From positions 1 to 64,000 of the forward strand of contig CAXXFK010000040.1 of assembly GCA_963663965.2 (NCBI GenBank): a stretch of DNA of 64,000 bases. Direction: 5' to 3'. Below the pieces are notes generated by a model. It was not told the DNA's origin. It worked only from the letters and a program-made list of their open reading frames with translations, and ran no database searches. Of this stretch, positions 32,745 to 62,702 are shown one piece after another (the stretch's first letter is position 1; the number at the start of each line of letters is the position of its first letter). Origin of the DNA: Sedimentisphaerales bacterium. GTDB lineage: Bacteria > Planctomycetota > Phycisphaerae > Sedimentisphaerales > SM23-30. The position numbers and the translations under genes are program-made.

Positions 32745-33036
32745 CCCCACTTCCAAACAGCATCTCCCATGCGCTGGGCTGTCGCCGTGAGTAATTGGGG
32801 AGGATTTTCATCCTGCCCTACAAACAAAAATAATCCTATAATAGTTTATAGCACAAGAGTTTAAAAGATAACGGCGGCCAGAATTGAACCGGCGATCTGG
32901 GGCTGTGAATCCCTGGTATGGCAAATGAGTATTAGAACTTCTTCAACAGTCAGGTAAGTGCGTATTGTTTGCCGGATTTTATCAATTCCACAGAAATTGA
33001 CACACATCCTACTCACTCCCCAATCAAAACCAGAAA
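32745..33036. repeat. att-like repeat unit (most degenerate copy) containing a tRNA(CAT)-like 3'-half remnant at 32869-32911 on the minus strand
   Basis: CACAAGAGTTTAAAA-GATAACGGCGGCCAGAATTGAACCGGCGATCTGGGGCTGTGAAT-CCCTGG..TTTTATCAATTCCACAGAAAT..CCCCAATCAAAACCAGAA; aligns with 49154-49465. Confidence 0.8.
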
Positions 33037-33830
33037 CGAGTCTACCCGATATTTGCCAGGAAAAGAGTGCATGCCAAAATACTCGCTTGCTGATCCATCA
33101 AATTATTCTATTCTGGAGAAAAGGCGCTTTCCGGGTGAAAAAGATAACGTAGACTGGCGCATAGCCAGGTAAGTTCAAGATAGTACCTGAGCGCCCTGGG
33201 ATCATGAAGTAAACATCGTTGCAAAATGGAGAAAAATTTCGTTCTTCCAGATCCTCATCATGCAGACGAAGAATCATTTCTCCCCAACCAGATATATTTC
33301 GATTCTTCAAAGTCAGAGTAACTATCTGGCGCATCAGAATTGTCCTGAGGTCTTTGGGAAGTGACATATTCATACCAGATATCATGACATGATTTATTGG
33401 ATTGCGTGCTTCCCTCGCTGATTTTATCAAGTCGTTCTTCCATATCCTTTTCCTGCCAGGAGACCACTTTAGATAACAGGCATATCGAGAATATGCCGGA
33501 TTATAAAAATCGTATTAAAAATATCGCATAAAAACGGCGGATAAGTTTAAAATTAAGGGATATATCTGCCCTGGCCATCGATGTTCTTAATTCCAGGCAG
33601 ACCCAAATCTTATAAAATTCCGTTTCCCTCCGGGCAATTTCAACTATCCTGTCTACTCTAAAATTTCTTTGGCTGGTGTCATTTTAGAATTATCCACCCT
33701 CTTATTATCAGCGCTCTCGGAAATCCCATGCTTTCTTTTATCCCACGATTTTCTTTAGTATTTCCAAAGTCTTCTACCTAGAAATGCCGTCTTTTCATCT
33801 TAAGAGTTCTGTTCAGTTTTGATAAGATAT

Positions 33831-35314
33831 TTACTGTGGCCATTCATAAGCGCCGATATCGGCAGCAGAACCTTGTGGGATGACCGTCCCCTCTATGTCG
33901 ACTTTCAAGCCCAAATTCACTCCCGCATCGATGCAGGGGGACTGGTTATTGATGTGAAAATCATTTTTCACAATATCGAACAACATGGGATCTTTCGCTA
34001 TAGAATGAATTTCTTTATTTAAAGCGGTTTGATACAACCCAAACTGATCCATCGAATATTTTTGAGATGGCGCCAGGATCATAATACCGGAACTCTGATA
34101 CCAGCAGTTGTGATCCATTTGGAGTGCATTAATCGCATCGGCGGACCATCCGGGGGCATAAAAGCCATTGCCCCGTGCTTCATAAAAAATATTGTTGCGG
34201 AGACAGATATCGTGGGCGGCCGCAGGGCTGGAATAAAAACATAAATGACGTCCGCTGGGATCCGGCCGCTGGGGATGACCCCAACCGGATCCGGCATTCA
34301 CGCAGGTGTTATTGTCGAAATAGATGTTATAGGTGAGTGAATTTTCGGGCCGGTTCCAGTATTCAAAAGAATACTCACAATTCCAGATCAGGTTCTGCCG
34401 ATAGGTAATGTTATACTGTTTGACATTCGACGCATTATTCTGATTAGTCAACGCCGCATCGTAGATCTCCCATAGCCGGCAATTTTCCACCAGATGATCG
34501 TGGGCATTCGCCCAGAATTCGATTCCATTACCGTAGCGAACCGGGTGTCCTTCCCGCGGTGGTGAATTGATGCCCGCCCCCGATATAGGAAAGGTCACAC
34601 CGGCGAATAATCAAATGGTGCGTACTACTGCCGCCGAAACCATGCGCGGCTCCGTAGCGCAGCGCCAGATCTTCAAACGTAATATAGCTTTTACCTCCAA
34701 TGTCAATAATATGTTGCTTTAATGCCAGTTCAATGCCGGTGTAAAGCAAGGCTGGGTTTTGAGAACAATACATCTTGACCCGCCTGGATTCCTGATCATA
34801 CCAGTAGTCTCCCGGTTGTTTCAGATCATCCGGTGACCATTTTTTTGACCCCCAACAGATTGCCCCCCATTAAATATAATGTTCCCGACATCTGTTGCAT
34901 ACGAGGAGGTGGTTGACCAGATATGATTCTGTTCGTCCTGCCAGTCCTCCGGTTGATTGGCGCTGACAGATCCAAGCAGTAAAGGTTTTTTCACCCATGC
35001 CATAAGCGCCATAGGTGACAGGACCGGTTTCGCCGCCACTCTGCGGAATCAACTGCCCGCGCCAGGTATCGCCTCGATGGAACCGGATCACATCATTGGG
35101 CTTGAATGATCCGCGATTGACGCGTTCCAGGCTCTGCCACGCGTTTTCAGGAGACAGCCCATTCTGAGTGTCTGAACCATCGCTGGAAACATAATAGACT
35201 TCTGCCATAACCAACTAGGGATAAAAAGAAAAGCGCTAGAATGGCAATCTGCCTGAGCCGGATAAAATGCCATGGATCGCCATCTTTGTATTGAAACTTT
35301 TTATTGTGAGCCAT
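33831..35314 (-). CDS. Secreted right-handed parallel beta-helix protein (frameshifted)
   Basis: YYVSSDGSDTQNGLSPENAWQSLERVN, FHRGDTWRG, YGAYG, GNGIEFW, SPCIDAG..DIGAYE; spread over about 5 ORF pieces. Confidence 0.75.
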
Positions 35315-35438
35315 ATTATTCACCTGAACACTCCGGTTCACCTCCAATGTCGCATCATTTCATCCATATAACATTAATTATCCCCAAACTTATTGCGGGA
35401 TCAAGAGAATTTCTTTTCACTAGAATGACATAATGGCA

Positions 35439-38191: not shown

Positions 38192-39727
38192 TTAACCGTG
38201 AGCCGCCGGAACCGACGGCAGGCATTGATCGTATTCACTCAATGGGCGGATAATGGGATGTTCTTCGATAAAATCAAATTGCGGCTGTTCAATCCCTGTT
38301 CCGCGTTTTAACAGGTCACGCAAAGTCCGCAGGCGAAACGCTCCATGTGTCAGGGCAATCCGGCAGGCCTGGTTAATCGCCGGGTGGTCATACTGCTTGC
38401 TCAGGGACAACAGGCCCATGAGCGCCCGAACGGCCGTGATCCCGCGGAACTCCAGCAGAGCCTCGGCCCAGGCCAGGGTTTCCGGCCCGATGTACCGGAC
38501 TTTGGTCAGTAACCAGGTGGATCCTTTTTCCACCCCCGAGCGTTTGCGTGCGTCGATGTGGCGATCATTGGTCTGGAACTTCCCGGCCTCCACCTGGGCA
38601 TGCGTCGCGATCGATTCCATGCGATGGTTGTAGATCCGTACCACCCGGCCGTCCCAGCGGGCCCAGACCGGATGCCCCAGATACTCCGGTGGCACGGAAT
38701 AGTAGGCTTTGGCGACTTCCACATGGCCGTCGCGATGCACCCGGCGTTGAGACTCTTGGAATGAAGGGAAATGACCGGACGGTAAGGGCAGCAAAGCCGG
38801 CTTGTCGGCCTGGTCAAAGATCTGGCGTACCTGTTGACGCATCGTGCCGTGAATCCGGGTATCGGCCACCCGCACTTCCCAATCCTGTAAAAAACGGTTC
38901 TGTTCGGCCAGCGAACTAAAGATCCGGCCCTTCAAGGCGTTGTCCTGCACATATTTGATTCCGCTTTCCACCTTGCCTTTGTGACGGGGTGTGTAAGGCC
39001 TGGCCGGCAGAATGACCGTCCGGTAATGGACACAAAACGATTGCAGTTTGGGATTCAGTTCCGGATCGTACCAGTCGGCCCGGGTGACCGCTGCCTTCAA
39101 ATTGTCGATAACCAGGGTTTGAGGCACACCCCCAAAATGCCAGAAGGCGTTCTCCAGACAGCGTAGAAAACTCTCGGTGGTCTGGTGGAAGACCGACTCA
39201 CTGTAGGCTTTACGCGAATGACTTAAAACCATGCGGAAGACATAAGTTCTTTTGCGTTTGCCATTGAGCCAGACCGGCGCGCCGGTGCCAAAATCGACTT
39301 GCGCTTCCTGGCCCGGCGGGCATTCCATCCGCCGATAGGGCAAAGGGCGGGTCTGGCCCAGGCGCCGCACAAACCGCTTGACACTGTCATAGCTGCCAGT
39401 GAATCCCTGCTCGCTTTGCAGATCCTGAAAGATCCGTTGTCCGGACAACCCCTGACCGAGTTTGTCGCAGATAATCTGACGATAGGGTTCGCACTGGCTC
39501 TGGCGGCCTGCCGACCCGGGGGGCGAAATGGTCGATTTTGGCCCACCGCCGATCTCGGACCCGGGGGGCACAATGGCCGATTTTGACTGTTCACGCACCA
39601 ATCGGACATAGCGACTGACCGTCTGGCGATGGATCCCCAGTCGGCGAGCCACCTCGCGCTGGGAAAACCCTTGTTCACAAAGAGTTATGATCTTATTCGT
39701 CTGTACCATGCTGATCTGATTGGCCAT
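38192..39727 (-). CDS. istA: IS21 transposase IstA
   Basis: HTH SQREVARRLGIHRQTV, PGQEAQVDFG, FGGVPQTLVIDNLK, KGKVESGIKY, YYSVP. Confidence 0.95.
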   Translation of the reverse strand: MANQISMVQTNKIITLCEQGFSQREVARRLGIHRQTVSRYVRLVREQSKSAIVPPGSEIGGGPKSTISPPGSAGRQSQCEPYRQIICDKLGQGLSGQRIFQDLQSEQGFTGSYDSVKRFVRRLGQTRPLPYRRMECPPGQEAQVDFGTGAPVWLNGKRKRTYVFRMVLSHSRKAYSESVFHQTTESFLRCLENAFWHFGGVPQTLVIDNLKAAVTRADWYDPELNPKLQSFCVHYRTVILPARPYTPRHKGKVESGIKYVQDNALKGRIFSSLAEQNRFLQDWEVRVADTRIHGTMRQQVRQIFDQADKPALLPLPSGHFPSFQESQRRVHRDGHVEVAKAYYSVPPEYLGHPVWARWDGRVVRIYNHRMESIATHAQVEAGKFQTNDRHIDARKRSGVEKGSTWLLTKVRYIGPETLAWAEALLEFRGITAVRALMGLLSLSKQYDHPAINQACRIALTHGAFRLRTLRDLLKRGTGIEQPQFDFIEEHPIIRPLSEYDQCLPSVPAAHG

Positions 39728-40738: not shown

Positions 40739-40951
40739 CCGAAAACAGACATTAGAACTCCTCTGAAACTCAATATTCACTGTTTGAGAAAGGCCTATGG
40801 CGCCACTCAGGCCAATCATGGTGTCCCTTTTCAGACACTCCAAAAAATGATGGGGCATAGTTCGATAGTCACGACTATGCAATATTACCTTAAAAGTAGT
40901 CCAGAGCAGGAAGAAAAGGCAAAAAGGGTGATGGAGAAGGTCATGGGGTAG
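40739..40951 (+). pseudogene. Orphan C-terminal fragment of a tyrosine recombinase/integrase (absent from the ORF track)
   Basis: Translates as ..LKLNIHCLRKAYGATQANHGVPFQTLQKMMGHSSIVTTMQYYLKSSPEQEEKAKRVMEKVMG*, with HxLR, (L/M)GH and the catalytic Tyr region. Confidence 0.88.
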
Positions 40952-41004: not shown

Positions 41005-44000
41005 CTATTCAACACCCACTAGCCAATATTCTGCTACTGGTACGAAATCCATTATATTGACTATGCTATCGCCTGCCGGATACGGGATAATATCACCCGA
41101 AGGGATGCCGGGAGTTTGTAGCCACTGACTCATTAGAGTGATTAAGTCCGCAAACTCTACCCGGCAGTCACAATCAATATCACCTGATACAAATGAATAT
41201 CCAGAATTAAAACCACAGGCGGTATAAGCTTGGGTTTGATGGACATTTTCATAAATTGACAAATAGCCACTGCTTTTTTCATTTGTCTGTCGGATTGCAA
41301 CATAACCAAGATAATAAGGCCCATCGATACCATTATCAGCAATTAGACTCCCATCATATTCAAATGATATTACAGATATTCCCTGAACAAGCTGAGTATC
41401 AAACGGAATTGCTTGAATAACATTTCCATTGCTACCATACAATCCTGCACATATTTCATAACTACCAGAATCTTGTGTATCAATTTCCACATCGATCATT
41501 AATTTACTCATCGGGCAATGGTTTCCAGTATATGCCACATAATCCATGTAGTTTCCTGTCAACCTGGTTGGTGGTCGTTCAAACATTTCAGCCATATAAG
41601 CATTCATCGTATAATCTGTTGAAGTAACATAATTATCTTCTGAATCATACAATGTTATTGATGCCGTGTAAGAGCCGTTTATACCATTCTCTCGGATATA
41701 TCGTCCGTCAAATAAAACTTTAATTGAATTGGAATTCAGGGAGGACAATTTTCCGTTTTCCGTCAAAAACGGAGATGCATTGGGATCAATACTCAACGAT
41801 ACTACTGCGAAATACTCATCTTGCTCATACACATTCAAGCCAATATCAACCGCTAACCAGTCATACAAACCATCACAATTATCATCGATTCCATATTCAG
41901 TAATTGCTATCAATCTCAACGGCATTTCTCCGAAATCGTTATGATTGATAATTGATGTATTGAATTGAACATAGTCAAGCCGAATATTATTAACATCAAC
42001 TAACTCCAAGTAGACATTATATGTCCCATCATATCCGCTCCGAAATATGTCTTCGCCGCTGAATATTACAGTAGTAGTACTAGGATTTGTTCCAGAAAGA
42101 AATATTTTATCTGAAAGATATGATACATCACCCATACTTTTTCGGTCTGTTATAAATTCCGAATTGTATTTTAGATGACCCATAATATAGAAATCACCTG
42201 ATAAGCCATCAATATTTACATTTATTGCTAACGATTCAAATACTCCATCATTGTCCCCATCATTTCCGTATGCGGTAGGAATATCTGTAAAACTTGGCAT
42301 TGCTTCTTTATTTGTATTAGCAGTTATTGAATTGTCTAAATAATGAATATCATTGTCTAATATAATGCACTTAGCATGACCAAGGGGTGAATAATGAACA
42401 GGTTTATATATGTTTTGTGGAACAAAAGCCTCATCTGACTCAATATTAACTAGAAAGCTTTCTTGTTTTTCTGATTCGATATCACCCTTAATCTCAATTT
42501 CAACTGGTTGACTTTTCTGGCCCTTGTTAAATAAAAGGACTATACTTTTCTCAATATAATCAAAACCAGGTTCAGCTTCCCCTGGTATTGATACTGTATA
42601 ACATCTTACATTGATTGGATATTGTGCTGGCCTTGAAAGCGTAACATTAAAAATTGCTTTCGTAATTCCAGAGTCGCCTTCATTAATTTCAACTATTGCA
42701 CTATTATTTATTGGATTTCCAATAAAAACAGACATGGGCTCAAATTGTGTTATACCATTCAAATAAGTATCATTTATCGGGCCACAATAAATGTCATTAT
42801 TATTAACTGTCGTATGATATATAATACCATAAGTATCCACATATAATCTATCAACACTGTCCCACATTAAATCATTCAATAATCGCACATAATAGTCCCC
42901 AACCCAATATTCATAAAATTGTGTAAAAGTTGGGTCATACCATATGACCCGCAAACCATCGCTAAAATAACATAAAGCATGATATTTAAAATACCAACGA
43001 TCCCTAATACCATCAGTATGCTTCCGAGAAAATGCATTGCCGCCTTCATGCCCACCAATTGGAACCATATCAAATACTTGAGTAATGAATGACCCACTTT
43101 CATCGCCAGGCTTTATTATATTTTTAAGTGGTACCGTCGTATACTCTACTTTTATTCCTAATGTGGTGGCTAATTTTTCAAATGCACGAGCAAAACTTTC
43201 ACAATTCCCATATGGGAGTTTATTAGGATCAATATAATTGCTGGTGTAGAAGAGTAAGTCTCCCCAATTCATAACCTTAAATTGAGAGTAAATCCAATTC
43301 TGTCTCCTGAAACTTGCCATAAATTTATTGAGAATAGCTGGAGCATCAGCCGCCCTTTCTCCTTGTGCTAACTCCACGGCTTTTTTTAGATACTTTTCTT
43401 CAGGAGGGATATTGGATTCTTTTAATATCTTATCGGAATGAATGACAAACAAAGGAAATTCTGCAGGTGGTTCAGGTGATTTAATCTTAAGACCTTTTGA
43501 ATCCCAGAACCTAAACTTTAATCTCAGTATATATTGACCAATTTTCAGATTTCTGTCGTTAGAATCTAAAACAAATCGATTATTTTTTACCGGAATATTT
43601 TTAGCTTCAGCAATTACAGTACCATTGTCTATTATTTCCCAATCGACTTTACATGTCTCATACTCAATATTATTTGGTTTTATATCTATGGTATATATAG
43701 TACCCGGCATTGTATAATACTTATTAGCAGTTGAACCGTTGCCGGATATTTTATTTTCCTTATGAATAGCAGTAATATCTACGTTGTATTCCCCATCCGC
43801 CACAGGATAAAATACATCTGGATGCACTTCGCTCCATATTACATTCGGGATCCCTTGAATCGGGACATTTTCACTAACACTGATTTCTGTAACACGAATG
43901 GTATCAAGAGTACACTTTGCGCAATCTCCCCCCAGTGAATCAATATATAAATACCGTATCCAGTAAAGACTACACGCGCTGTCGCAAATCTGCACCCGTA

Positions 44001-44904: not shown

Positions 44905-44934
44905 TAACCATTCCTATAATATTCAATTGATAAA

Positions 44935-44972
44935 AATGCCTACCGGATAATCTTCTGAACCCGGCAGGCATT
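44935..44972 (-). terminator. Intrinsic terminator-like hairpin after the lectin PEP-CTERM gene
   Basis: Minus strand AATGCCTGCCGG-N14-CCGGTAGGCATT followed by a T run. Confidence 0.55.
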
Positions 44973-44975
44973 ACA

Positions 44976-46186: not shown

Positions 46187-46356
46187 TTTTAAACTCCTTA
46201 AAAATTGGTATTAGCATGAAATTGATACGATGAATTATTTGCAATAATGGTAATGTGTAATTATGAAGATAAATGTAATCTTCTAATACAATGAAAAATA
46301 ATAAATATTGAGATAGGTAGTTATTATTCCATCGTTATCTGTTCCTCCTCTACCCT

Positions 46357-48043: not shown

Positions 48044-48067
48044 ATACACTTAAAATCAGGTAATTCC

Positions 48068-49124: not shown

Positions 49125-49153
49125 ATTCTACTGAAGTCTTGATTTATCCCCCT

Positions 49154-49500: not shown

Positions 49501-49509
49501 ATCCAATGG

Positions 49510-49785
49510 TTTGAAGGTCACCGGCAACAAACGGCTGACCAAAGCCCTGCTGGATCGATTGACGCATCGGGTGCATATTCTCGAAGCTAATGCTGAAAGT
49601 AACCGGCCTCAGGAAACCAAACGGCTGCAGAAGCAGACCAGGGCCCAAGCCGGCGACAAGCAAGGCCCGCTAACTCGCGTCTTCCCTCGGGGAGGCATCT
49701 CTGGGAACTTGAATACAAAATGACACCTGTACGTACGGGATAAATCTACCATTCAGGTGCCGCACTTTTACGCCGGCGTTCGCAT
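49510..49785 (+). mobile_element. Remnant 3' end of a second IS21-family element (istB tail)
   Basis: GNKRLTKALLDRLTHRVHILEANAES.R matches the IstB C-terminal motif. Confidence 0.75.
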
Positions 49786-50922: not shown

Positions 50923-50932
50923 AAATGGAGTA

Positions 50933-52950: not shown

Positions 52951-54277
52951 TGGTTGAAAACATTGTTCCCAAAACCGGACTATTTGATCTTAAATGCCCG
53001 CCGGGGCGTTTTGATAACTGGACTAAAAAGAAGTTGTTTGAACATTTGTCTGCTATTCAATCTGGCCGATTGACCCATTACAGGAGTCAGGGCAGACATA
53101 TAATTTTGGCCAGGTGAAGTCCCCGGAAGATCTAGATGTCGCAATAACCGTACACCACAGCCGATTTTACTCAGCAACCGTCTTGGGTGGCGCCATTGGC
53201 TTCGCCCAAGCCTATATGCTGGGCTTGTGGAATTGTAATCAACTGACGAATCTGATTCGTCTTTTTGCAAGAAACGCTTCTTCGCTTGATGGCGTCGAAG
53301 GTCTCCTGACATGGTTGAGGCGATTTCGCGAAAAAGTGTTTCATCGACTCCATGCTAACTCGCCAATCGGCAGCCGCAAAAATATACAAGCTCATTATGA
53401 CTTGGGTAACAGTTTTTATGAGCTTTGGCTTGATCCCACAATGACTTATTCATCCGGGCGTTTTCCTTTCCGATACAATCTCACTCCAACAAGCACAACT
53501 GGCTAAATATGAACGTCTGTGCCGGAAGTTGTCTTTAAGCCCTGATGACCATGTACTTGAGATCGGTACTGGTTGGGGAGGAATTCGCAGAATATGCGGT
53601 CACCAACTACGGCTGCAAGGTCACAACACGACAACAATTAGCGAGGAACAATATGCTTATGCAAAAAAAACGTTTTGCCAAAGCGGGATTAACCCAACAA
53701 GTAACCTTATTACAGCAAGATTACAGAGAATTGACCGGCCAATTTGACAAACTTGTTTCGATTGAAATGATCGAAGCGGTCGGACATCGGTATATCGATA
53801 CATTTTTTCGGTGTTGCAATCGATTATTGAAAAAAGAGGGCATGATGGCGCTGCAGGCGATAACCATTGCAGACCAGAAATTTAAACGTTATATTCAACA
53901 AGTCGATTTCATCCAGCGCTATATTTTCCCCGGCGGTTGTCTAACCTCGTTGACTCACATGTGCGACAGTTTAACGCGCCTGTACCGAGTTGAGATTGTT
54001 TGACCTTGAAGATCTGACAGCCTGTTATGTTACGACTTTATATCACTGGCAACAAAATTTTAGCAAGCATCTGGAATCGGTTCGCTCCTTCGGTTTTAAT
54101 GAATGTTTTATTCGCATGTGGATCTATTATCTTTCCTACTGTCAAGCTGGCTTTGCTGAACGAAATATCGGCCTGGTACAAATGGTGTTAACTAAAAAGC
54201 AGGTGTTTCCCTGGATTGATGTCATCGCTTTTGAAATAAATAATGTCCGACAAACCATTCATTACCCTTGGCGGTAA
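52950..54277 (+). CDS. cfa: Cyclopropane-fatty-acyl-phospholipid synthase-family methyltransferase (multiple frameshifts)
   Basis: GSRKNIQAHYDLGN, LDPTMTYSS, VLEIGTGWG, FDKLVSIEMIEAVG, DFIQRYIFPGG, RMWIYYLSYCQAGF. Confidence 0.85.
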
Positions 54278-55260
54278 CCAAACAGTTCTGCGCAAGCCAT
54301 GAAAAAGACTCGCCATCGTTGAAACCAGCGATTGGCCTGCTCTGCTGAACCATAGGTGGATTTGAAAATATCAATAATCGCCAGTCGATGGATGTCCATG
54401 TTTTTTAGCCATGCTTCACAGGTTTTTCTGGTAATGCGCACCGCATATCCTCCAGTGATTTTCGATAACCAGATCGTCTTGAAAATGAAAAAATAAATCA
54501 TCCGATGGCATAATCCCTCCGGTAAAAAAGTATTTACTCATCCAGTTCTCATCACCCTCTGTTTCATACAAATAACTGTATTCACGATGACAGAAAATAT
54601 GAACAAACACCCTTCCATCAGATTTCAGCCAGGCAGCAAATATTTTTCAATAATTGCTGATAATTGTGCATGTGTTCAAACATCTCCACGGACACAATTC
54701 GATCAAACTGTTCGGATGTTTCGAATACATTTATATCCTTCGTGATGACTTCAATATTTGTAATATTCTTTTCGCGGCAACGTTTCTCAATAAACTCGCG
54801 CTGCAAGTTGGAATTGGAAACCGATGTAATATGACCGTTGGGGTAAGATTCCGCCATCCATATTGACAGACTGCCCCATCCCACAACCCAGCTCCAATAT
54901 CTTCATGCCATCCTTTAAACCCGCCCGCTGGGATGTAATCGACAGGGCTCTGACTTCAGCTTGATCAAGGTTTTCAACATCGTCCCCCCAGAGGCAACAA
55001 CTGTACTTTAAATGAGACCCCATTACTAATTTAAAAAATCCGGGCGGCAATTCATAGTGTTGCTGATTGGCAGTATCGGTTTCGATGGCGATTGGCTGGG
55101 TTGTTAAGAAATCGAACAGTTGCTTTTTTCTTTTCAGCCGTTCTGCAACATTGCCTTGCATTTCACGCTGCAGCGTTTGTTTATTCAAATGTCGAATCCC
55201 TACGCGGATAAGCGCATCCGGCAGGAGTCTGCGTTCCATTAAGTCAATCAGTAAATTCAT
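54262..55260 (-). CDS. Second cfa-like class I SAM methyltransferase (frameshifted)
   Basis: LPDALIRVGIR, ANQQHYELP, LKYSCCLW, LELGCGWGSLS, FDRIVSVEMFEH, FVHIFCH, YFFTGGIMPS, RWRVFFMACAELFGY. Confidence 0.85.
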
Positions 55261-56048
55261 AAATCCTCCTTTTTAAACATCCATGGAATAAACGGGGAGG
55301 TCGCCTGTTGGTATTTTTTGTAGTCTTCGCCCCGGCTGGCCAGTGCCTGCTGCTCGGTATAAGGGATCCCGGTTATCTTATAAAGAAACACTAGCATTAC
55401 TACTGGACCGAGCGCGGATAAAAACCACATCTCCGAACCAAACGCTAAGAACAAGTAAGTAAACCAGTGAAGCCATTCAAAAAAGTAATTGGGATGTCTA
55501 CTATATCGCCACAATCCCTTTCGGCAGGTTTTGCCTTGGTTGTCAGGATTCCTTCGAAACGCCTCCAACTGCCAGTCAGCAACCGCTTCTCCTGCAATTG
55601 CACCGATTGCGATAATGACAGCGACAACATCATACCACTGTCCGGCAGGAATCGTACTGAATGCTACGGGCAAAAAAGGTATCGAAAACAAGGCGGTACC
55701 GAAAGCCTGAAGCTGGTAAAAGTAGAAGAATTTTTGTTGTGCCTTGTTGCTCCACTCGGAACGCAGCATTTGGTATCGCCCGTCCTCGGGTTTTCCATAA
55801 GCACGAATAAATAGGTAGACAGCCAGCCGAAAGCTCCAAAAACAGGCCAATACCATTAAAAGAATTCTACGGCTCCAATCCCCATTTCCTGTGATGCCAT
55901 AAGTCAACGCAAGGCATCCCACTCCAGCAGCCCAGACAATATCCACGGCAGTGGCGTTTTTGCTTTTCTTTTGAAACCGGTAAAATAAATACATGATGAC
56001 TGCCATCGCAGTCCAGCCGGAAATAAACAGCATGAACATGTTCTTCAC
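55257..56048 (-). CDS. DUF1295 (steroid 5-alpha-reductase-like) membrane protein
   Basis: VDIVW, EDGRY, ADWQL..F, GLWRYSRHPNYFFEW, TGIPYTE, YQQATSPFIPW. Confidence 0.9.
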   Translation of the reverse strand: MKNMFMLFISGWTAMAVIMYLFYRFQKKSKNATAVDIVWAAGVGCLALTYGITGNGDWSRRILLMVLACFWSFRLAVYLFIRAYGKPEDGRYQMLRSEWSNKAQQKFFYFYQLQAFGTALFSIPFLPVAFSTIPAGQWYDVVAVIIAIGAIAGEAVADWQLEAFRRNPDNQGKTCRKGLWRYSRHPNYFFEWLHWFTYLFLAFGSEMWFLSALGPVVMLVFLYKITGIPYTEQQALASRGEDYKKYQQATSPFIPWMFKKEDL

Positions 56049-56244
56049 GAAAAATCCTTATTTCGAACTGCAAGTATCCACATTATACCCTCAATCCCCA
56101 TATATTATAGCATAAATTTCTTTTGTCGTCATTTACTATTTATATTCAATATAGCATTGCAAGGCAGAGTATTTTTAACTTGCGAAGCCCTGAGTTACTG
56201 GGTAGCATGATTGTAGGTGTTTGATCCGTTTTAGGAGATACATT

Positions 56245-56664
56245 ATGTCACTGTCAAAAATTCTTATCACTTACCTCATTTCCGTTCCGATTTTTTTAAT
56301 CATTGACGGCGTCTGGCTGGGAGTCATTGCAGGCGGTTGGTATCGAAAAACACTCGGTCATTTACTTTCTTCTACGGTAAACTGGACTGCGGCAATCGTA
56401 TTCTATTTGCTTTTTCTTGTGGGATTGCTGGTCTTCTCCTTAATTCCGGGAATCAGCAAACAATCTCTCGTTCACACCATTGCTTTGGCCGCCTTGTTCG
56501 GGTTTGTCAGCTATGCAACCTATGACCTTACCAACCTGGCAACCCTTAAAGACTGGCCGCTTACAGTAACAATCATCGACTTGATTTGGGGAGCATTCCT
56601 GTCGGCTTCAACGGCAGCCATCACTTATCTGATAATAACTCGTATTTTTTATAAGCCGGTTTAG
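56245..56664 (+). CDS. DUF2177 family membrane protein
   Basis: IDGVWLG, AAIVFY, YATYDLTNLATLKDWP, IDLIWG; RBS AGGAG. Confidence 0.85.
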   Translation: MSLSKILITYLISVPIFLIIDGVWLGVIAGGWYRKTLGHLLSSTVNWTAAIVFYLLFLVGLLVFSLIPGISKQSLVHTIALAALFGFVSYATYDLTNLATLKDWPLTVTIIDLIWGAFLSASTAAITYLIITRIFYKPV

Positions 56665-56844: not shown

Positions 56845-57459
56845 TTATTCCAAAGAGCCTTTACTGTTTATGTAACTTACTGTTTCGCTCAATGAAAGTC
56901 CTCTGCTTCCTGGCCCCACCCTTATGTAAAATTCTTCTTCGCCCGGTTTAATTCTAAGGTAGACTGGGGCATCGGCTTTGCGGCAGTCAGCCACAATGAT
57001 AGTTTTGTCTTCAAGAGTAAATGCTTTAAAGGTGATGAACTTTGCAAGAGCCAAACCTATATGCTGTTTTATGAGATTGTTGAAGTGAAGAAGGAGTTTG
57101 TCTTCATTCGGGAAGTTATCCAGATAAGTTCCAAGAATATTTCCGTTGTCCTCTACTCCTACGATGAGTGTTCCCCCCTCTGAGTTCATGAATGCAACAA
57201 GTGTTTTCATCGATGCAAGCTCAATGTCTTTTCCCTGTTGATTTGCTTTGATATTCCTACGGAGGGTTGATTTGAATTCCAAGTGATCGTTTTCACCTGC
57301 GTCGATAGTTTTAAGTAGAGTTTGGTTGTCCATTTCTGCGAGCATTGGTGGAAGTGATGATAGCTTTAATTCGATCTCATAACGTCGCCAGAGGGAAAAA
57401 GTTGCAAGTACCCTCTTGTACCATCCTCTCTGGAAAGAACATAACCACAAGCCAAACAT
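56845..57459 (-). CDS. AlbA_2 / Schlafen-like domain protein, probably 5'-truncated
   Basis: GENDHLEFKSTLR, KTLVAFMNSEGGTLIVGVEDNG, FYIRVGPGS. Confidence 0.8.
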   Translation of the reverse strand: MFGLWLCSFQRGWYKRVLATFSLWRRYEIELKLSSLPPMLAEMDNQTLLKTIDAGENDHLEFKSTLRRNIKANQQGKDIELASMKTLVAFMNSEGGTLIVGVEDNGNILGTYLDNFPNEDKLLLHFNNLIKQHIGLALAKFITFKAFTLEDKTIIVADCRKADAPVYLRIKPGEEEFYIRVGPGSRGLSLSETVSYINSKGSLE

Positions 57460-57671: not shown

Positions 57672-59027
57672 CTCAAACTGACCGATTGAAGGATTTTAGA
57701 TGATAGTAATAGTTCAACAAAAAAGGCCTTTCCAGCCGATAAGTGTAGTGCAAACAAACATTTACTGGCAAGGAGGCCTTATGCTTACTATCGGCAAAAT
57801 CCCGCAAAAAATCAAGCGTTTTTTTCAACCTGTCCAGAGGCAGGTTTCCGAACATGTTTTCGCCTATTTCTGGGAGTTCGTTGTGGCCTTTTCCGTCAGT
57901 CATGGCCACACCATTGAACGGCTGATGGACTGCCTGCGGGACACCTCGCATCGCACCAATCATGGCGAATTCCTCTGGCGCAGCCAATGGGATGAGGCCT
58001 GGACCTTGCGCGCCATCGCCCTGGACACTCTTAAACGGCTCTATCGCAAAGACTGTCCGGACTGCTACCTGATTCTCGACGACACCCAAACCATCAAACG
58101 CGCCAAAAAGATGCAGGCCGTCGGCAAGATCTACCATCATGCCAACAAGACCTACTGTACCGGCCATACTATTCTGAAGGCCTGTTTGTTTTACCGGGGC
58201 GTCACCCTTCCCTGGGGCAACTGGCTTTATCTCAAAAAAGAGCAGGCCCAACGGCTGCAGTTGCCGTTTGAAAAACTCACGAATCTGGCCGCCCAAGCCA
58301 TCCGGCAGGCGCAATTTCCCACCCCATTGCGAATCACGGTGCTGTTTGATTCCTGGTATTTGTGTCCTCAGGTAGTACAGGCCTGCCAGGAACGCCGCTG
58401 GCATTATATCAGCGTGGCTAAAAAAAACCGGACTTTGATGGTTCCAGGGGTGGGCAAAAAAGCGGTTGGAACCTATGGCCGCAATGTTCTGAAAAACTCC
58501 GGCCATTCCTGCAGCATTACGGGATTGCGTAAATCGCTGCCTTATCGCATCGCCGAGCGGCGGGGCCGCATGGGCAAACTGGGTGAGGTCCGGGTGATCT
58601 TCTCGCAACGCCGGAACGAGTCTCAGTTTGTCGCGTTGGTCACCGATCATTTCAACCGGGCGCTGCACAAACTCGTTGCCGATTATCTGAAACGTTGGTC
58701 CATCGAAATGCTGATCAAGGATGAGAAACAGCATCTCGGGCTGGGCGACTACCGCGTCCTGCGGTACCAGGCGATAGTTAGACACCTGAGCCTGGTTGAT
58801 TGCGCCTATGCCTGCCTGACCCATGTTGGCTTGAATGACCAACATGCACAAGGCCACCTCCACACCAAGCCAGTGCTGTTTCTGAAACCCATCAGCAAAC
58901 TGAAGGAGCAGTTGCGTCAGATTGTCTGGCAGGAAGAAGTTAAAAATGTAATCAAGGTATTGCATGAACGAAAAGTGATAAACCGATTGGAAAAGCTGCT
59001 CAAGGCTTCATGATCGGTCAGTTTGAG
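57672..59027 (+). mobile_element. IS701-like (IS4 superfamily) insertion sequence, 1356 bp, with 7-bp target duplication TAATTTA
   Basis: Perfect 15-bp TIR CTCAAACTGACCGAT / ATCGGTCAGTTTGAG; TAATTTA at 57665-57671 and 59028-59034. Confidence 0.92.
57781..59013 (+). CDS. DDE transposase (IS701-like)
   Basis: RBS GGAGG; LILDDTQTIK, VLFDSWY, YLKRWSIEMLIKDEKQHLGLGDY (YREK). Confidence 0.92.
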   Translation: MLTIGKIPQKIKRFFQPVQRQVSEHVFAYFWEFVVAFSVSHGHTIERLMDCLRDTSHRTNHGEFLWRSQWDEAWTLRAIALDTLKRLYRKDCPDCYLILDDTQTIKRAKKMQAVGKIYHHANKTYCTGHTILKACLFYRGVTLPWGNWLYLKKEQAQRLQLPFEKLTNLAAQAIRQAQFPTPLRITVLFDSWYLCPQVVQACQERRWHYISVAKKNRTLMVPGVGKKAVGTYGRNVLKNSGHSCSITGLRKSLPYRIAERRGRMGKLGEVRVIFSQRRNESQFVALVTDHFNRALHKLVADYLKRWSIEMLIKDEKQHLGLGDYRVLRYQAIVRHLSLVDCAYACLTHVGLNDQHAQGHLHTKPVLFLKPISKLKEQLRQIVWQEEVKNVIKVLHERKVINRLEKLLKAS

Positions 59028-59036
59028 TAATTTATA

Positions 59037-62000
59037 TTAATTAATCCAATTCTGAACTAATATATAATAGTCAAACAGGTTTGTAATACCATCACTATTG
59101 ATGTCTGTTCGGGAGTCAACTTTTAACCAACGCTCAGCAAAATAGGATAAGTCTTCAGAGTCTACTCCATCAGGACATAGAAAATCTCCGGCCGAATCGT
59201 ACTCCCACGCCAAACGCGGATACCCGGCCCCATCGACACACATCCGCCAAATATCCTCAACCCCGTTAATATGCTCCCCAACAAAATCCCAACCAACATC
59301 CGTAAAGGTTGCTTGCATTTGCATTTGATTTGTTGTTAGCCCCACCATACCATCGGTATCATAATCTGGTTCGTCCGGGTCAGGAATGCCGCTTGCAACA
59401 ATGTCCCAAAAACAGTTGAATGTATTACCCATATAGCCTACCAATCCTCCAACCATATACCCCTCGCCGGAAACCGACGCGTTTGAATAGCAATTATTAA
59501 TATTAGCACCTCTTCCGTTACCCACTAGACCGCCAGTGTAAGCATTACCAGTAACCGATCCGTTCGAATAACAGTTACTGATATCACCTCTACCATAGCC
59601 CACCAGACCACCAATACTTCCGTATCCTTTTGTTATCCCACTTGAATAGCAATTGTCTATGATACCTGAGTTCTTTCCTACAAGACCACCAATGTCTGTG
59701 CCACCGCCACTATTGGTGGTGCTAGTTGAATAGCAATTAATAATTCGACCATCATTATCGCCCACTAAGCCACCGATCCTACTCGAACCATATGGACCAT
59801 TATAAGATGCATTAGAATAGCAATTCGTAACACTGCCAATGCTATTCTTGGCAATCAGTGTGCCGCTAAAATTTCTTCCTACCATACCCCCAATATCCCC
59901 GTTCCCTGCAACGGTTCCACTTGAATGGCATCGATTTATATTCCCAATATTATCGCCCACAAAAGCACTTACACTATAATACCCAGTTACTATACTATTT
60001 GAATAACAACCATTTATACTACCAGCATTAAAACTTACTAAGGGAGCGACGCACAAACCTGTTCCTGAACCTGTAATAGAAGCATCTTGAATACTAAGAT
60101 TATTAATATTACCATCAATTCCAAGTTGAGCAAATAATCCTAAATATCCTCCTCCTTCAATAGTAAGATTTAATACAGAAAAGCCGTTACCATTAAATTT
60201 TCCGTAGAAACTATCAACGACAGCCGTTGACCATTTGATACCATGTAAATCGATATCAGCTTTCAGGTCATAGCAAGCTCCTCTATCATAGTGATGAATT
60301 GCACCAAGTTCCTCTGCGGTAGAAATCTGATATGGATTTTCCTTGCTGCCATCGCCATCTAATGCGGTCGGAACATAGCTTGTTGTAAAAACAGTTAACT
60401 CCGGATACCCTCCTCCATCAGGCAACTGCCATATCTGACTAGTTCCGTTAGCAGATTCACCGATAAAATCCCATCCGGTGTCTATGAAAGTACTGAGGGA
60501 ATGCATCTGATCAGTTGTTTTCCCTGTTCCGGCATGACTTGTTGTCATGCCGGAAGTTTCAACATCCCAATAGCTGTTGATAGTAATACTGTTATCATAG
60601 CCTACAAGACCGCCTGTATTAGAATTGCCAGTAACAAGGCCGATCGAATAACAGTGTGTAACAACGCCAATGTTATAACCAACCAAACCACCTGTGTTTG
60701 CATTACCAATAATTGTGCTACTCGAATAACAATTACTAATTACACCTCCATTTTGGGTTGGAACGCCACCATTAGTTCCTACCAATCCACCTGATGCGTA
60801 TATCCCGTTAACATTTCCGGTTGAGTAACAACCGGAAATGATACCACCATTTGATCCTACTAAGCCACCAGCATATGAACCTTCAATAAAAGTACTCGAA
60901 TAGCAATTAGTGATACTACCCAGCATATTATCAGCTACCAAAGAAGCTACAAGTCCTCCCCCAATAACAGAAGCACTTTTAACCCTTAGATTGTCTATGT
61001 GCCCTCCAATACCTAGATGACCAAACAACGCCAAGAACCCTCCTCCTTCAATAGTAAGATTTAATACAGAAAAGCCGTTACCATTAAATTTTCCGTAGAA
61101 ACTATCAACGACAGCCGTTGACCATTTGATACCATGTAAATCGATATCAGCTTTCAGGTCATAGCAAGCTCCTCTATCATAGTGATGAATTGCACCAAGT
61201 TCCTCTGCGGTAGAAATCTGATATGGATTTTCCTTGCTGCCATCGCCATCTAATGTGGTCGGAACATAGCTTGTTGTAAACACAGTTAACTCCGGATACC
61301 CTCCCCCATCAGGCAACTGCCATATCTGACTAGTTCCGTTAGCTGATTCACCGGTAAAATCCCATCCGGTATCTATAAATGTTCTGAGGGAATGCATCTG
61401 ATCAGTTGTCTTTCCTGTTCCTCCATTACTTATTGCCGTACCGGACTTTTCAACATCCCAAAAACAATTGAAAATATTAGAGACATAGCTATTATCTCCA
61501 ATCAGTCCGCCGATACTGTAATTACCATTTACGGCACAATTCGAATAACAGTTGGTTATTGCACCTAAGTTCGTACCTATCAGGCCACCTATAAAATAAT
61601 TCCCGATCACATTGCCCCTCGAATAACAGTTGCTAATTCTCCCGTTGTAGTTCTGACCTACGAGTCCCCCGACAAAATTATTGCCCGCCACATCACCATT
61701 AGAGTAACAATTAGTAATATTACCTCCATAATTAGCACCTACCAGAGCAGCAATATAATCGCCTAATCCATCAATTGATGCATTTTCGATACCAAGAAAT
61801 CTAATCTCTGAATCATTATCAATTTTCCCAAATAGTCCCAGATAATACCCTCCTACAAAGCCTTTAACAATTGTTACATTTCGAATTATGTGTCCATTAC
61901 CATTAAAACTGCCTGAAAAAGGAATACCTCTGAAATCACTTTTATTGCCGCTGCTTGGTGAGATAACGGCATTTGTGAATGTTTGTCCAGCGAGATTGAT

Positions 62001-62240
62001 ATCGTTAACAAGCACAAAACACGCTGCCGGGTCACTGTTCACATCCAGAAGATCCTGAATTGTAGCTATTTGATAAGGGTCCTTAGCCGTGCCATCCCCA
62101 CCTGAAAAAGATCCACAATAAGCTGATTCTGATAGTAAAAATATAAGTACTATTGGTAACATAGTCCAAAGTATATTGACTTGTATTATCATGTTTTTTT
62201 TCATTTTGCCTTTCTCCATTAATGCTCTGAATAAAAGCAT
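59037..62240 (-). CDS. GLUG-motif repeat secreted protein with dockerin-like tail
   Basis: FSGGDGTAKDPYQI, many VGGLVG.N..G.I.NCYS repeats, FWDVEKSG, TDINSDGITNLFDY; true start probably near 62200. Confidence 0.9.
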   Translation of the reverse strand: MLLFRALMEKGKMKKNMIIQVNILWTMLPIVLIFLLSESAYCGSFSGGDGTAKDPYQIATIQDLLDVNSDPAACFVLVNDINLAGQTFTNAVISPSSGNKSDFRGIPFSGSFNGNGHIIRNVTIVKGFVGGYYLGLFGKIDNDSEIRFLGIENASIDGLGDYIAALVGANYGGNITNCYSNGDVAGNNFVGGLVGQNYNGRISNCYSRGNVIGNYFIGGLIGTNLGAITNCYSNCAVNGNYSIGGLIGDNSYVSNIFNCFWDVEKSGTAISNGGTGKTTDQMHSLRTFIDTGWDFTGESANGTSQIWQLPDGGGYPELTVFTTSYVPTTLDGDGSKENPYQISTAEELGAIHHYDRGACYDLKADIDLHGIKWSTAVVDSFYGKFNGNGFSVLNLTIEGGGFLALFGHLGIGGHIDNLRVKSASVIGGGLVASLVADNMLGSITNCYSSTFIEGSYAGGLVGSNGGIISGCYSTGNVNGIYASGGLVGTNGGVPTQNGGVISNCYSSSTIIGNANTGGLVGYNIGVVTHCYSIGLVTGNSNTGGLVGYDNSITINSYWDVETSGMTTSHAGTGKTTDQMHSLSTFIDTGWDFIGESANGTSQIWQLPDGGGYPELTVFTTSYVPTALDGDGSKENPYQISTAEELGAIHHYDRGACYDLKADIDLHGIKWSTAVVDSFYGKFNGNGFSVLNLTIEGGGYLGLFAQLGIDGNINNLSIQDASITGSGTGLCVAPLVSFNAGSINGCYSNSIVTGYYSVSAFVGDNIGNINRCHSSGTVAGNGDIGGMVGRNFSGTLIAKNSIGSVTNCYSNASYNGPYGSSRIGGLVGDNDGRIINCYSTSTTNSGGGTDIGGLVGKNSGIIDNCYSSGITKGYGSIGGLVGYGRGDISNCYSNGSVTGNAYTGGLVGNGRGANINNCYSNASVSGEGYMVGGLVGYMGNTFNCFWDIVASGIPDPDEPDYDTDGMVGLTTNQMQMQATFTDVGWDFVGEHINGVEDIWRMCVDGAGYPRLAWEYDSAGDFLCPDGVDSEDLSYFAERWLKVDSRTDINSDGITNLFDYYILVQNWIN
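60148..61421. repeat. Near-identical 383-bp intragenic direct repeat (60148-60530 and 61039-61421, offset 891 bp)
   Basis: GTGKTTDQMHSL..GESANGTSQIWQL..LNLTIEGGG is encoded twice with very few nucleotide differences. Confidence 0.92.
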
Positions 62241-62623
62241 TTAATAGTTCGATATGACCATTGGAAAAAGTCAGTCCCCAAACCTAAGCACATCGACTAA
62301 CCTTTTTAACTACTTAACTATTTCCTACCCTCTCCTGCATGTAGTTCTCCAATTACAAGTTCCCCTATTATATAAAAACTACCATACCTATTTCAAGTAA
62401 AAATATATTATTATCGTCCCAAAGTGCACACCGCGTACCCTGAAGGTATGATATAACAAACTGGTGGCCATAGCTTTATCTCTTTATGTAGATATTTTTA
62501 ATGATCAGCGACAACCATTCTTGCCCTTGACGACAATTAAAAGTTCCCCAAAAATTGAAGTCAGAATAGACTATCTGAAACTCATTAACTCAGGGGATTT
62601 CCGATGATCCCTACCCACTCACA

Positions 62624-62702
62624 CCCCACTCAAAACCAGAATACAAATGACGCTGGTGGGACGCTGGAAATAGGTTGGTCGTGGAGAAAGGGTCGTGGAT
62701 AA
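62624..62702. repeat. Arm motif copy followed by an integrase-tip-like sequence
   Basis: CCCCACTCAAAACCAGAATACAAATGACGCTGGTGGGACGCTGGAAATAGGTTGGT matches 49445-49500; GTGGAGAAAGGGTCGTGGATAA follows. Confidence 0.7.

Follow-up and report, generated by a model that had tools for sequence, protein, structure and literature searches.

The repeats in the 64,000-nt window analyzed here (positions 1 to 64,000 of contig C40) are, with high probability, the att junctions of a decayed tandem island array, most likely produced when tyrosine integrases of one family serially inserted elements in the region of the anticodon loop of one tRNA-Met(CAT) gene. The contig belongs to a metagenome-derived, IS-rich assembly of 7.24 Mb that is 94.6% complete and in which ARAGORN called 51 tRNAs. 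We found the intact tRNA-Met(CAT) gene at C40 c[81535,81610], on the minus strand and 17.5 kb to the right of the window, as an initial annotation made from the window had predicted. Because the array continues to this gene, the island spans ~49 kb and not the 30 kb first proposed. Five further junctions, in the same orientation as the gene, lie 19-49 kb downstream of it.

When the intact tRNA(CAT) was compared by BLASTN with the whole genome, we recovered the three minus-strand 3'-half copies already described in the window, now with E values of 8e-9 to 9e-15. The copy at 49277-49320 was 97.7% identical to tRNA positions 33-76 (E 8.9e-15), that at 47828-47872 was 91.1% identical to positions 34-76 (E 2e-10), and that at 32869-32912 was 88.9% identical to positions 31-75 (E 8e-9). 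A fourth fragment was found on another contig (C13:127793-127834, 88.1%, E 3e-8). The fragments cover positions 31-34 to 73-76 and all start at the anticodon loop's 5' edge (the anticodon occupies positions 36-38 in the 76-nt ARAGORN numbering); the tRNA 5' half is absent from all of them. On the upstream side of the break, a GCCAG..CCAGG-type sequence that is not in the tRNA is common to the four fragments. Similarity to the tRNA ends at the anticodon loop and the fragments stay alike beyond it, as expected of attP-derived junctions. The locus also carries the signature used by Islander, an intact tRNA gene with co-oriented 3' fragments that all lie on its 3' side, and in terms of the Islander end-fragment test the breaks fall in the anticodon loop, a known crossover sublocation. 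The initial annotation had seen tRNA similarity lost at that loop and all copies in one orientation, and had read them as attP-like junctions of elements targeting one tRNA(CAT); the intact gene, the co-orientation and the position of the breaks bear this out. In six relatives the orthologous tRNA gene likewise has a hairpin directly after it. Co-oriented 3'-half fragments of the same tRNA are present in four other genera, and one of these (G008:C44) adjoins a full 413-aa integrase. Flanking synteny with other genera was absent in a search against 21 loci (2/89 ORFs matched, weakly).

The junctions share a common architecture (Table 1). Each of the three window fragments is followed by a terminator hairpin and then by a ~45-nt motif, M. 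This hairpin-plus-M block of ~125-130 nt on the low-coordinate side is common to all copies, and ~180 nt on the high-coordinate side (block D10 and a second M, M2) are common to the 32.9k and 49.3k copies only, in keeping with the shared flanks noted earlier. A whole-unit nhmmer profile scored the copies at E 1e-47 to 1e-55, and they differ from one another by 14-30%. At 49.3k the junction and the P-arm together make a complete ~350-bp attP-like site, within which M recurs as a direct repeat ~290 bp apart, flanking the core. The M repeats of the two arms probably act as arm-type integrase-binding sites, a putative assignment.

Table 1. Features of the array and its surroundings (contig C40 coordinates; the last row lies beyond the window)
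Feature	Coordinates	Strand	Evidence
IS630-type transposase gene (HTH_32 + DDE_3), divided between two frames, directly adjoining the array's left end	31622..32645	-	DDE_3 4e-19, HTH_32 1e-13
Terminal junction: tRNA 3' half 32869-32912, degenerate hairpin, degenerate M1-like motif 32737-32792	32737..32914	-	nhmmer E 1.3e-47
P-arm of leftmost unit: 60-nt block D10 32938-32997, half motif M 33006-33035	32938..33035	-	alignment with 49.3k arm
IS21-type IstA transposase gene, inside leftmost unit	38192..39727	-	rve 4e-13, Mu-transpos_C_2 4e-15
Tyrosine-integrase remnant, last 69 codons only	40742..40948	+	PF00589 33.9 bits, profile positions 125-168 of 172
1299-aa Calx-beta protein and C-type lectin protein, GC 0.33-0.41	41005..45566	-	Pfam, composition
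Partial junction: second half of hairpin, M1; tRNA core deleted	46344..46461	-	profile positions 67-177, E 3e-27
DUF6923/PEP-CTERM protein gene	46377..47270	-	Pfam
Junction: ~16 nt of proximal P-arm, tRNA 3' half 47828-47872, hairpin, M1 47690-47751	47690..47889	-	E 1.5e-55
1.25-kb unit: HTH_3 regulator gene and Fic-domain gene	48023..48963	+	HTH_3 8e-13; Fic weak, 5e-4, below gathering score
Junction: tRNA 3' half 49277-49320, 14-pair hairpin then T run 49238-49270, M1 49142-49200	49142..49324	-	E 1.3e-53
Complete P-arm: D10 49353-49412, M2 49432-49498	49353..49498	-	repeat families, nhmmer, alignment
IstB (IS21) C-terminal fragment abutting M2	49496..49723	+	IstB_IS21 4e-6
Lipid-modification genes: desaturase, amine oxidase, DUF1365, cyclopropane-fatty-acid synthase, DUF1295, DUF2177	49983..56664		Pfam
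Truncated AlbA_2/Schlafen gene; 87% identity to a portion of the complete 508-aa gene at the C13 relic	56845..57459	-	
IS4-like DDE transposase gene	57700..59013	+	DDE_5, DDE_Tnp_1
1067-aa GLUG-repeat surface protein	59037..62240	-	Glug 2e-34
Solo M, P-arm (M2) type	62611..62675	-	nhmmer E 2e-13
Longer tyrosine-integrase remnant, frameshifted, ~residues 243-408 of a ~410-aa enzyme	78997..79513	+	PF00589 41.1 bits, profile positions 103-166

We observed eight significant copies of M and one partial copy, seven of them within C40:32.7-81.5k and all of these on the minus strand. M occurred in 0/400 other genomes of the order; one 2-mismatch match was equalled in number by a reversed-pattern control. 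The terminal junction at 32.9k, likely the displaced oldest tRNA end, retains an M-like motif, although a purely chromosomal B' arm would have been expected there. Two explanations are an M native to the tRNA flank and the loss of a further element; M may be partly native to that flank. By eye, a faint likeness to M could be read after the tRNA in one relative (G005). The hairpin folded well in the tRNA sense only (-12.3 kcal/mol at 81k and -13.2 at 49k, versus -4.9 and -5.8 antisense), and it weakened with distance from the gene, to -9.9 kcal/mol at 47k and -5.4 at 32k. A second prediction independently called the 49.3k hairpin terminator-like.

Two junctions, at 46.4k and 62.6k, lack their cores. 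At 62.6k the upstream flank of M matches that of the 49.46k M2 (49445-49500 versus 62624-62679, 80%), and this solo M likely represents the left end of a tRNA-proximal unit that reaches C40:81534, beyond the window; the left boundary of this 18.8-kb unit is set by that single motif. At 46.4k the PEP-CTERM reading frame continues past its post-PEP-CTERM basic tail into the half hairpin, apparently marking a deletion scar. The partial junction, both solo M motifs (49432-49498 and 62611-62675) and the half M at 33006-33035 were absent from the initial annotation, as was the stretch of the array beyond the window, up to C40:81610.

A genome-wide PF00589 search (cut-off 27.1 bits) found no intact tyrosine recombinase in the island, only truncated matches. 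The two island remnants exceed the cut-off and cover part of the profile only; both are 5'-truncated and convergent with the tRNA. They are 93.7% identical over 222 bp (40742-40948 versus C40:79307-79528), with seven synonymous and four non-synonymous codon differences in 69 codons. A third remnant, frameshifted and with its own att copy, lies on C13. Used as a query, the remnant sequence matched just the two remnants in its own genome, and no full-length family member was found; the prediction of a full integrase nearby was not supported. The closest full-length proteins are 45-52% identical and carry phage-integrase SAM-like N-terminal domains, and the other intact integrases of this genome adjoin intact tRNA genes, convergently. 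An origin from one element family, as first suggested, remains plausible since the junctions share arms and the two remnants are 94% identical. The att copies are 14-30% apart, compared with ~6% for the integrase stumps, which means that simple decay from a single recent source does not account for the att copies.

Pfam searches confirmed the cargo first described for the array, namely surface proteins, an HTH/Fic pair and lipid-modification genes (among the last, the cyclopropane-fatty-acid synthase is split over three ORFs), and identified four IS elements or IS fragments. The IS630-type gene has a depth ~3.5 times that of neighboring DNA and is therefore multi-copy. A mobile-element-type HTH-ImmA regulator (PHROG 4e-47) lies between copies. 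GC content is 0.33-0.45 across 41-64 kb versus 0.486 for the genome; the 18.8-kb tRNA-proximal unit is close to average in GC and carries unremarkable polysaccharide-degradation genes, and the island region includes a sulfatase/glycosidase cluster. Several genes of the island are broken. No conjugation or mobilization genes were found in the array, and no helicase, primase or excisionase among the island ORFs (Pfam, PHROGs); the lone weak "DNA helicase" PHROG match is an AlbA_2 domain.

We reasoned that each incoming circle would have carried a ~350-bp attP with, in the tRNA sense, the order M2, D10 (60 nt), tRNA 3' half, intrinsic terminator hairpin and M1. Integration would have supplied the tRNA with a fresh 3' half and terminator, displacing the previous 3' half and the older elements farther from the gene. 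Later decay would then have reduced the integrase genes to 3' stumps and deleted the cores at 46.4k and 62.6k, and IS630, IS21 and IS4-like elements would have entered the array. As no cognate integrase was detected in the genome (94.6% complete), we predict that the array can no longer move; it would act as a fixed reservoir of accessory genes, namely those for surface proteins, the HTH and Fic pair, lipid modification and polysaccharide degradation.

Could the same repeats have arisen without site-specific integration, by local segmental duplication and gene conversion of the region downstream of the tRNA? The shared block does reach ~125 nt beyond the tRNA end, which exceeds a typical identity segment, and the terminal copy also has an M-like motif. 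However, the break point is the anticodon loop in all copies, the tRNA 5' half is missing throughout, the copies share a non-tRNA arm upstream of the break, and integrase remnants, the HTH-ImmA regulator and unrelated low-GC cargo lie between them; we regard duplication as very unlikely. An equally low probability attaches to an assembly artifact in which strain variants with different islands at the same tRNA were joined into a false tandem. The runs holding this DNA are community assemblies of low depth (~4.6), public contigs break at the 49.3k junction, no cover was seen for 33.3-37.0k, no contig joining the 49.3k and 32.9k junctions was seen among the public contigs compared, and the window differs from a public contig by seven single-base gaps across the IS21 copy. 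On the other hand, an independent public contig of 8511 nt covers 40766-49276 with zero differences and spans the 46.4k and 47.8k junctions, which are therefore not assembly errors; the junction sequences differ mutually and so are unlikely to collapse or mis-join easily, and the P-arm/P'-arm pairings match those expected of a real tandem insertion. The reading as a MITE, or as some similar dispersed repeat with a chance likeness to a tRNA, has only the repetition itself in its favor and is refuted by the copy number, the clustering (the seven M copies in one 49-kb stretch) and the single orientation. The repeat search found neither terminal inverted repeats nor an inverted-repeat family at the boundaries, and the fragments are 88-98% identical to the resident tRNA gene; such an origin is exceedingly improbable.

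We also considered whether the array is a working integron-like or CIME-like platform, from which integrase-less 1.2-1.3-kb blocks (PEP-CTERM and HTH plus Fic) are excised, shuffled or captured in trans, a reading close to the integron-style function first proposed. Junction spacings of 1347 and 1450 bp define two very small units with one gene or gene pair each, the 49.3k attP-like site is complete, and composites that start at the core of 49.3k or 32.9k and end at the tRNA, and only these, hold a full P-arm and a full P'-arm. One review documents cis-mobilization of integrase-less elements in other bacteria (PMC5704250). Against this, no cognate full-length integrase was found in the genome, no single unit has two complete ends (the 47.8k junction has ~16 nt of P-arm only), attC-like sites are absent, the cargo ORFs occupy both strands and share no promoter side, and the junctions are diverged by 14-30%. 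The motif and junction pattern was absent from two public collections (genome and metagenome), so no circulating cassettes were seen. The integron-style function was thus not upheld, and we consider a working platform improbable. There is a similarly slim chance that genes are still being captured at the tRNA(CAT) locus, with an integrase of this family from a visiting element recognizing complete M2-D10-core-hairpin-M1 sites in trans. If so, integrase-less blocks would be excised or reshuffled as 32-kb and 49-kb composites or as 1.2-1.3-kb mini-units, the long M repeats would be a new kind of extended arm site, and cargo-only DNA would ride on a tRNA gene in Phycisphaerae.

Read as a decayed tandem array, the locus documents how, in a planctomycete lineage that has been little studied, a large accessory region has likely come together at a single tRNA gene, and it adds a data point on tandem-island decay. 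The attP layout is fully dissected (arms, core and built-in terminator), and it belongs to an integrase family to which the nearest full-length relatives show only ~50% identity. For annotation, the genes here are best regarded as flexible-genome cargo, and the tRNA halves would be misnamed as pseudo-tRNAs of unknown origin.

An attP of the lambda type has arm-type sites on both sides of its core. Similarly, one motif flanks the core on both sides of the ~350-bp site here; unlike a single arm-type site, M is much longer at ~45 nt, and its role as an arm site is putative. The array resembles an integron in its one-way row of short gene units between recombination sites and in nothing further: it is without an IntI-type integrase beside attI, without attC hairpin sites and without a common promoter, its units lie on both strands, and its sites are tRNA-derived attP junctions.

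A limited literature search returned no paper on such arrays in Phycisphaerae. The initial annotation had recognized no described system of this kind, but Islander tandem arrays, tycheposon islands and CIME accretion are all in print. CIMEs and the site-specific accretion of ICE and IME elements are described in streptococci (PMC5704250); here too the integrases are lost, yet each unit is without a complete site at one or both ends, and, unlike ICEs and IMEs, the array has no conjugation or mobilization genes. In the Islander paper, 2083/3919 islands have an anticodon-centered attP and 125 tandem arrays of two or more members are reported, four of them with at least three members, an array being counted only if each member has its own integrase and fragment (PMC4383910). 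Our locus shares with those islands the intact tDNA, displaced 3' fragments that are co-oriented with it and lie to its 3' side, the anticodon-loop crossover, the tyrosine integrase family and an element that restores the tRNA 3' half (PMC4383910). It has five units with two integrase stumps and three tRNA fragments and, with at least five junctions but truncated stumps only, would not resolve as a tandem under the Islander counting rule as given there.

According to the tycheposon preprint, new arrivals drive earlier elements into the island, and broken integrase genes and pieces of tRNA remain behind; the targets named include tRNA-Met(CAT), and a tycheposon comprises an integration module and a replication module with helicase, primase and similar genes (10.1101/2020.12.28.424599). 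The array differs from tycheposons as portrayed there in that a search for replication or excision genes (helicase, primase, xis) found none, and in its host, which belongs to a different phylum and has a large 7.2-Mb IS-rich genome. Like the Prochlorococcus tycheposon islands, it combines probable serial integration at one tRNA, with older elements displaced into the island, with fragmented integrases, scattered partial tRNAs and a cargo of adaptive accessory genes. Overall, tandem insertion at a tRNA gene is a well-known route of island building, and the array most likely represents that route rather than a new cassette system or mechanism.

We identified 51 tRNAs in the assembly (7.24 Mb, 42 contigs; the window is C40:1-64000 of contig CAXXFK010000040.1, here C40) with ARAGORN, and none of them lies inside the window. 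A tRNA-Met(CAT) was found on the minus strand 17.5 kb beyond the right end of the window, in agreement with the initial annotation, which had predicted an intact gene to the right on that strand. We then compared this gene with the whole genome by BLASTN and recovered four fragments (see table). Three are the tRNA 3'-half copies that had been noticed on the minus strand of the window, confirmed in the sequence at the same positions, and the fourth is on a separate contig of the same genome (C13). The three C40 fragments have the same orientation as the gene and all lie on its 3' side. Since the anticodon occupies tRNA positions 36-38, all four fragments begin at the 5' edge of the anticodon loop.

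Features of the tRNA-Met(CAT) array on C40 and of the related relic on C13 (positions without a contig name are on C40)
Feature	Position	Strand	Details
Intact tRNA-Met(CAT)	C40:81535-81610	minus	ARAGORN
tRNA fragment	49277-49320	minus	97.7% identity, tRNA positions 33-76, E 9e-15
tRNA fragment	47828-47872	minus	91.1% identity, tRNA positions 34-76
tRNA fragment	32869-32912	minus	88.9% identity, tRNA positions 31-75
tRNA fragment	C13:127793-127834		88.1% identity, tRNA positions 32-73
Half hairpin and M1	46344-46461
Solo M, P-arm type	62611-62675
Half M	33006-33035
Integrase remnant	C40:79256-79453	+	PF00589 41.1 bits, profile positions 103-166
Integrase remnant	40763-40897	+	PF00589 33.9 bits, profile positions 125-168
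Frameshifted integrase stump	C13:121207-121396		76% identity to the 79k copy
att copy (tRNA 3' half, hairpin, M)	C13:127653-127851		6.3 kb right of the C13 stump
Full-length AlbA_2/Schlafen gene	C13		508 aa, 87% identical to the truncated gene at window 56861-57408
Unit A	62.7-81.4k		Exo/endonuclease-phosphatase-family gene, two sulfatases, GH28, alpha-galactosidase, beta-helix protein, ECF sigma/FecR pair, integrase stump, HTH-ImmA/IrrE regulator (PHROG 4e-47)
Unit B	49.5-62.6k		IstB fragment, desaturase, amine oxidase, DUF1365, cyclopropane-fatty-acid synthase in three ORFs, DUF1295, DUF2177, truncated AlbA_2, IS4-like transposase, 1067-aa GLUG protein
Unit C	47.9-49.1k		HTH_3 gene, weak Fic match
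Unit D	46.5-47.7k		DUF6923/PEP-CTERM gene, frame continuing into half hairpin
Unit E	33.0-46.3k		Beta-helix protein, unassigned ORFs, IS21 IstA, second integrase stump, 1299-aa Calx-beta protein, lectin

Alignment of the copies with the intact gene defined a repeat unit of ~190 nt that reads, in the tRNA sense, as the tRNA 3' half, a hairpin with a T run, a ~30 nt spacer, and a ~45 nt motif (M) composed of two CCAGCG words 11 nt apart, one TTGACA, and a G-rich tail. Only in the tRNA sense does the hairpin fold well (-12.3 kcal/mol, z -4.2, beside the tRNA gene and -13.2 at 49.3k, versus -4.9 and -5.8 kcal/mol on the opposite strand), and its strength drops with distance from the gene (-9.9 at 47.8k and -5.4 at 32.9k; the C13 copy, -4.8). 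A separate pattern scan also called the 49.3k hairpin terminator-like, and the orthologous tRNA in six relatives has a hairpin directly 3', different in sequence in each, suggesting that the repeat brings a replacement tRNA end plus a terminator. On the upstream side of the break, the four fragments are similar to one another (GCCAG..CCAGG) and not to the D-arm side of the tRNA. Between the 49.3k and 32.9k copies the likeness extends ~180 nt, across a 60 nt block (D10) and a second M, so both junctions have the order M2-D10-core-hairpin-M1, with the two Ms (M2 on the P-arm side, M1 past the hairpin) ~290 nt apart. This arrangement is that of a complete attP whose two arms share one motif. No Rfam match was found over 30000-64000 at E up to 1, and M and D10 are thus not known RNAs. 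The TTGACA word raised the idea of a sigma-70 promoter within M, which we ruled out because a scan gave no matching -10 element.

Whole-genome nhmmer searches with unit and M profiles returned the known copies only. Eight M copies score below E 1e-8: seven lie in C40:32.7-81.5k, all on the minus strand, and the eighth is on C13. The next-best matches had E above 0.2. The repeat is therefore not dispersed, and the genome-wide scatter expected of a MITE was not seen. A degenerate M pattern with ≤2 mismatches matched 7 sites in this genome; among 400 other genomes from the order it matched one (with 2 mismatches), and a reversed-pattern control likewise gave 1 match. Neither M as an exact degenerate pattern nor the P-arm/core junction pattern had any match in public genome contigs and metagenome contigs, and these pattern scans found no active relative of the element.

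The C13 copy belongs to another relic of this element family, outside the window, at C13:121207-132971 (L003 1208-12972), where no tRNA is present. We considered whether segmental duplication links this locus to the right flank of the tRNA, and ruled this out because the 75-240 bp piece that they share (C40:82519-82754) recurs at about 45 other genome sites. This piece (L001 18519-18754) lies at the start of the gene right of the tRNA, has copies of 74-94% identity spread over about 20 contigs, and probably represents a 5' end conserved across a large gene family.

We searched the genome for integrases with PF00589 and obtained 16 matches. The two inside the island are + strand sequences that converge with the tRNA, and both comprise the C-terminal catalytic part only. 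They are 93.7% identical over 222 bp, in a shared block that ends 15 bp past the stop codon, and their 69 common codons carry 7 synonymous and 4 non-synonymous differences. With full-length homologues as queries, the 79k remnant could be traced in another frame to about 78997, which corresponds to approximately residues 243-408 in an enzyme of ~410 residues. The full integrase predicted near the tRNA was not found: the island holds truncated remnants only, and the remnant protein had no further match in its own genome. A conserved mini-gene, rather than debris, would also account for short integrase ORFs; we rejected it because the C13 copy is frameshifted, the relatives' remnants have unrelated N-terminal ends, and two species of one genus have only a 224 bp stump in common, with unrelated flanks. 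Among the nearest full-length proteins, one (45% identical) is a 419-aa frame on contig G013:C135 of a relative, where it converges with a tRNA-Phe at a distance of 330 bp; others are 51-52% identical and have SAM-like N-terminal domains with PF00589. No displaced tRNA-Phe fragment was found within the 20 kb examined beside the 419-aa homologue. By eye, a tandem CGTCCAG pair and then a G-rich run ~80 nt past this tRNA-Phe bear a faint likeness to M, too weak to serve as evidence. We also observed a 34 bp direct repeat (94% identical) at C40:79122-79155 (L001 15122-15155), in the coding region of the remnant, and C40:81356-81389 (L001 17356-17389), 17 bp from the tRNA-side M1. The pair flanks the integrase stump and the HTH-ImmA regulator, and the second piece looks like the final trace of a further integrase copy.

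The junctions define five units, A-E, counted leftward from the tRNA, and none of the five has two complete ends. The run-on frame of unit D marks a deletion scar, and the terminal 32.9k copy is adjoined by an IS630-type element. GC content is 0.33-0.45 over 41-64k versus 0.486 for the whole genome, and unit A is near average. Among 27 unassigned or regulator ORFs of the island, only HTH regulators, the HTH-ImmA fusion, and AlbA_2 matched PHROGs, with no phage structural or replication genes. The cyclopropane-fatty-acid synthase (CMAS) gene spans three consecutive ORFs, accompanied by an opposite-strand CMAS N-terminal fragment (window 53114-54277, 54787-55260); the split reflects either real frameshifts or assembly errors. 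The GLUG gene has an internal 300 bp repeat (60063-60362 versus 60954-61253, 90% identical) that belongs to a 676 bp duplication (83%). An inverted 105 bp repeat (75% identical; window 40479-40581 versus C40:74228-74330) ties DNA just left of the 40.7k stump to the tRNA-proximal unit, and a direct 195 bp repeat (86%) has its copies at C40:69561-69755 and 71435-71629.

In public data, the region is present as low-depth contigs in two runs of a single sample, and one of these contigs covers 40766-49276 with zero differences, spanning two junctions. An apparent joint of 46404 to 49235 and a loose end at 49320 were ruled out as excision products, because they arose from the tRNA-proximal copy (81.4-81.6k) aligned onto its paralogues. 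No genuine excision joint was found among public contigs over 32000-51000, which cannot reveal rare forms and which leave 33.3-37.0k uncovered and uninformative. Over the IS21 copy (window 37215-38115), a public short-read contig has seven single-base gaps and one substitution, suggesting that either the assembly or another IS copy contains indel errors; such gaps may explain the expected IstB ORF (37585-38238) without a Pfam match.

Integration into tRNA genes is routine in this organism. Several intact integrases lie beside, and convergent with, intact tRNA genes (His, Asp, Arg, Leu, Glu), and an Islander-style scan found displaced fragments of eight other tRNAs (Arg-CCT, Gly-CCC, Thr-TGT, two of Leu-CAA, two of Asn-GTT, Val-GAC, Asp-GTC, and His) with start positions 28-33. 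Most are 95-100% identical to their own tRNA, which together with the adjacent integrases indicates many younger tRNA islands; the tRNA(CAT) locus is the most heavily stacked site. Four other genera have 3'-half fragments of the orthologous tRNA in the same orientation, one of them adjoining a complete 413-aa integrase from a family other than that of the array, so this tRNA is a recurrent target. In another genus (G022), a 5'-half copy of the orthologous tRNA-Met (L041 4889-4962) lies 14.8 kb off (L041 19703-19744, 98% identical), which suggests an island displacing the front half of the gene; no integrase was present in the 7 of 14 ORFs scanned. A tblastn comparison of 89 ORFs (C40:20-100k) with 21 orthologous-tRNA loci in relatives gave only 2 weak matches; these loci are from other genera only, and the native empty site is not reconstructible from them.

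Overall, the co-oriented fragments and attP-like junctions, with their P-arm, core, and P'-arm, support an array grown by repeated insertion at one tRNA, and the three-copy repeat of the initial annotation now extends to more pieces and to the C13 relic. The anatomy fits serial site-specific integration. In such a process, the attP core of each circle would recombine with the anticodon-loop region of the tRNA, the incoming element would give the tRNA a new 3' half and terminator, and each insertion would push away the previous 3' half along with all older elements. The succession of events, an arm-type binding role for M, and the immobility of the array today are all inferences. Three observations fit serial integration poorly: the terminal copy retains an M-like motif, the att copies are 14-30% divergent versus 6% for the integrase stumps, and the composition of unit A looks native.

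The proposed integron-like function was not supported, and the array fails each integron-defining feature that could be tested. The signature described for Islander (PMC4383910) is exactly that found at the tRNA(CAT) array: the survey reports an anticodon-centred attP in 2083 of 3919 islands, and 125 tandem arrays of two or more members and 4 of three or more, counts that require each member to have retained its integrase. In tycheposons, new elements are described as driving older ones into the island, with fragmented integrases and partial tRNAs remaining (10.1101/2020.12.28.424599), and a review of IMEs defines CIMEs and accretion (PMC5704250). A literature search on genomic islands, integrases and tRNA in Phycisphaerae found no paper. 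The array represents a known kind of structure in heavily decayed form, a tidy case from an under-studied lineage.
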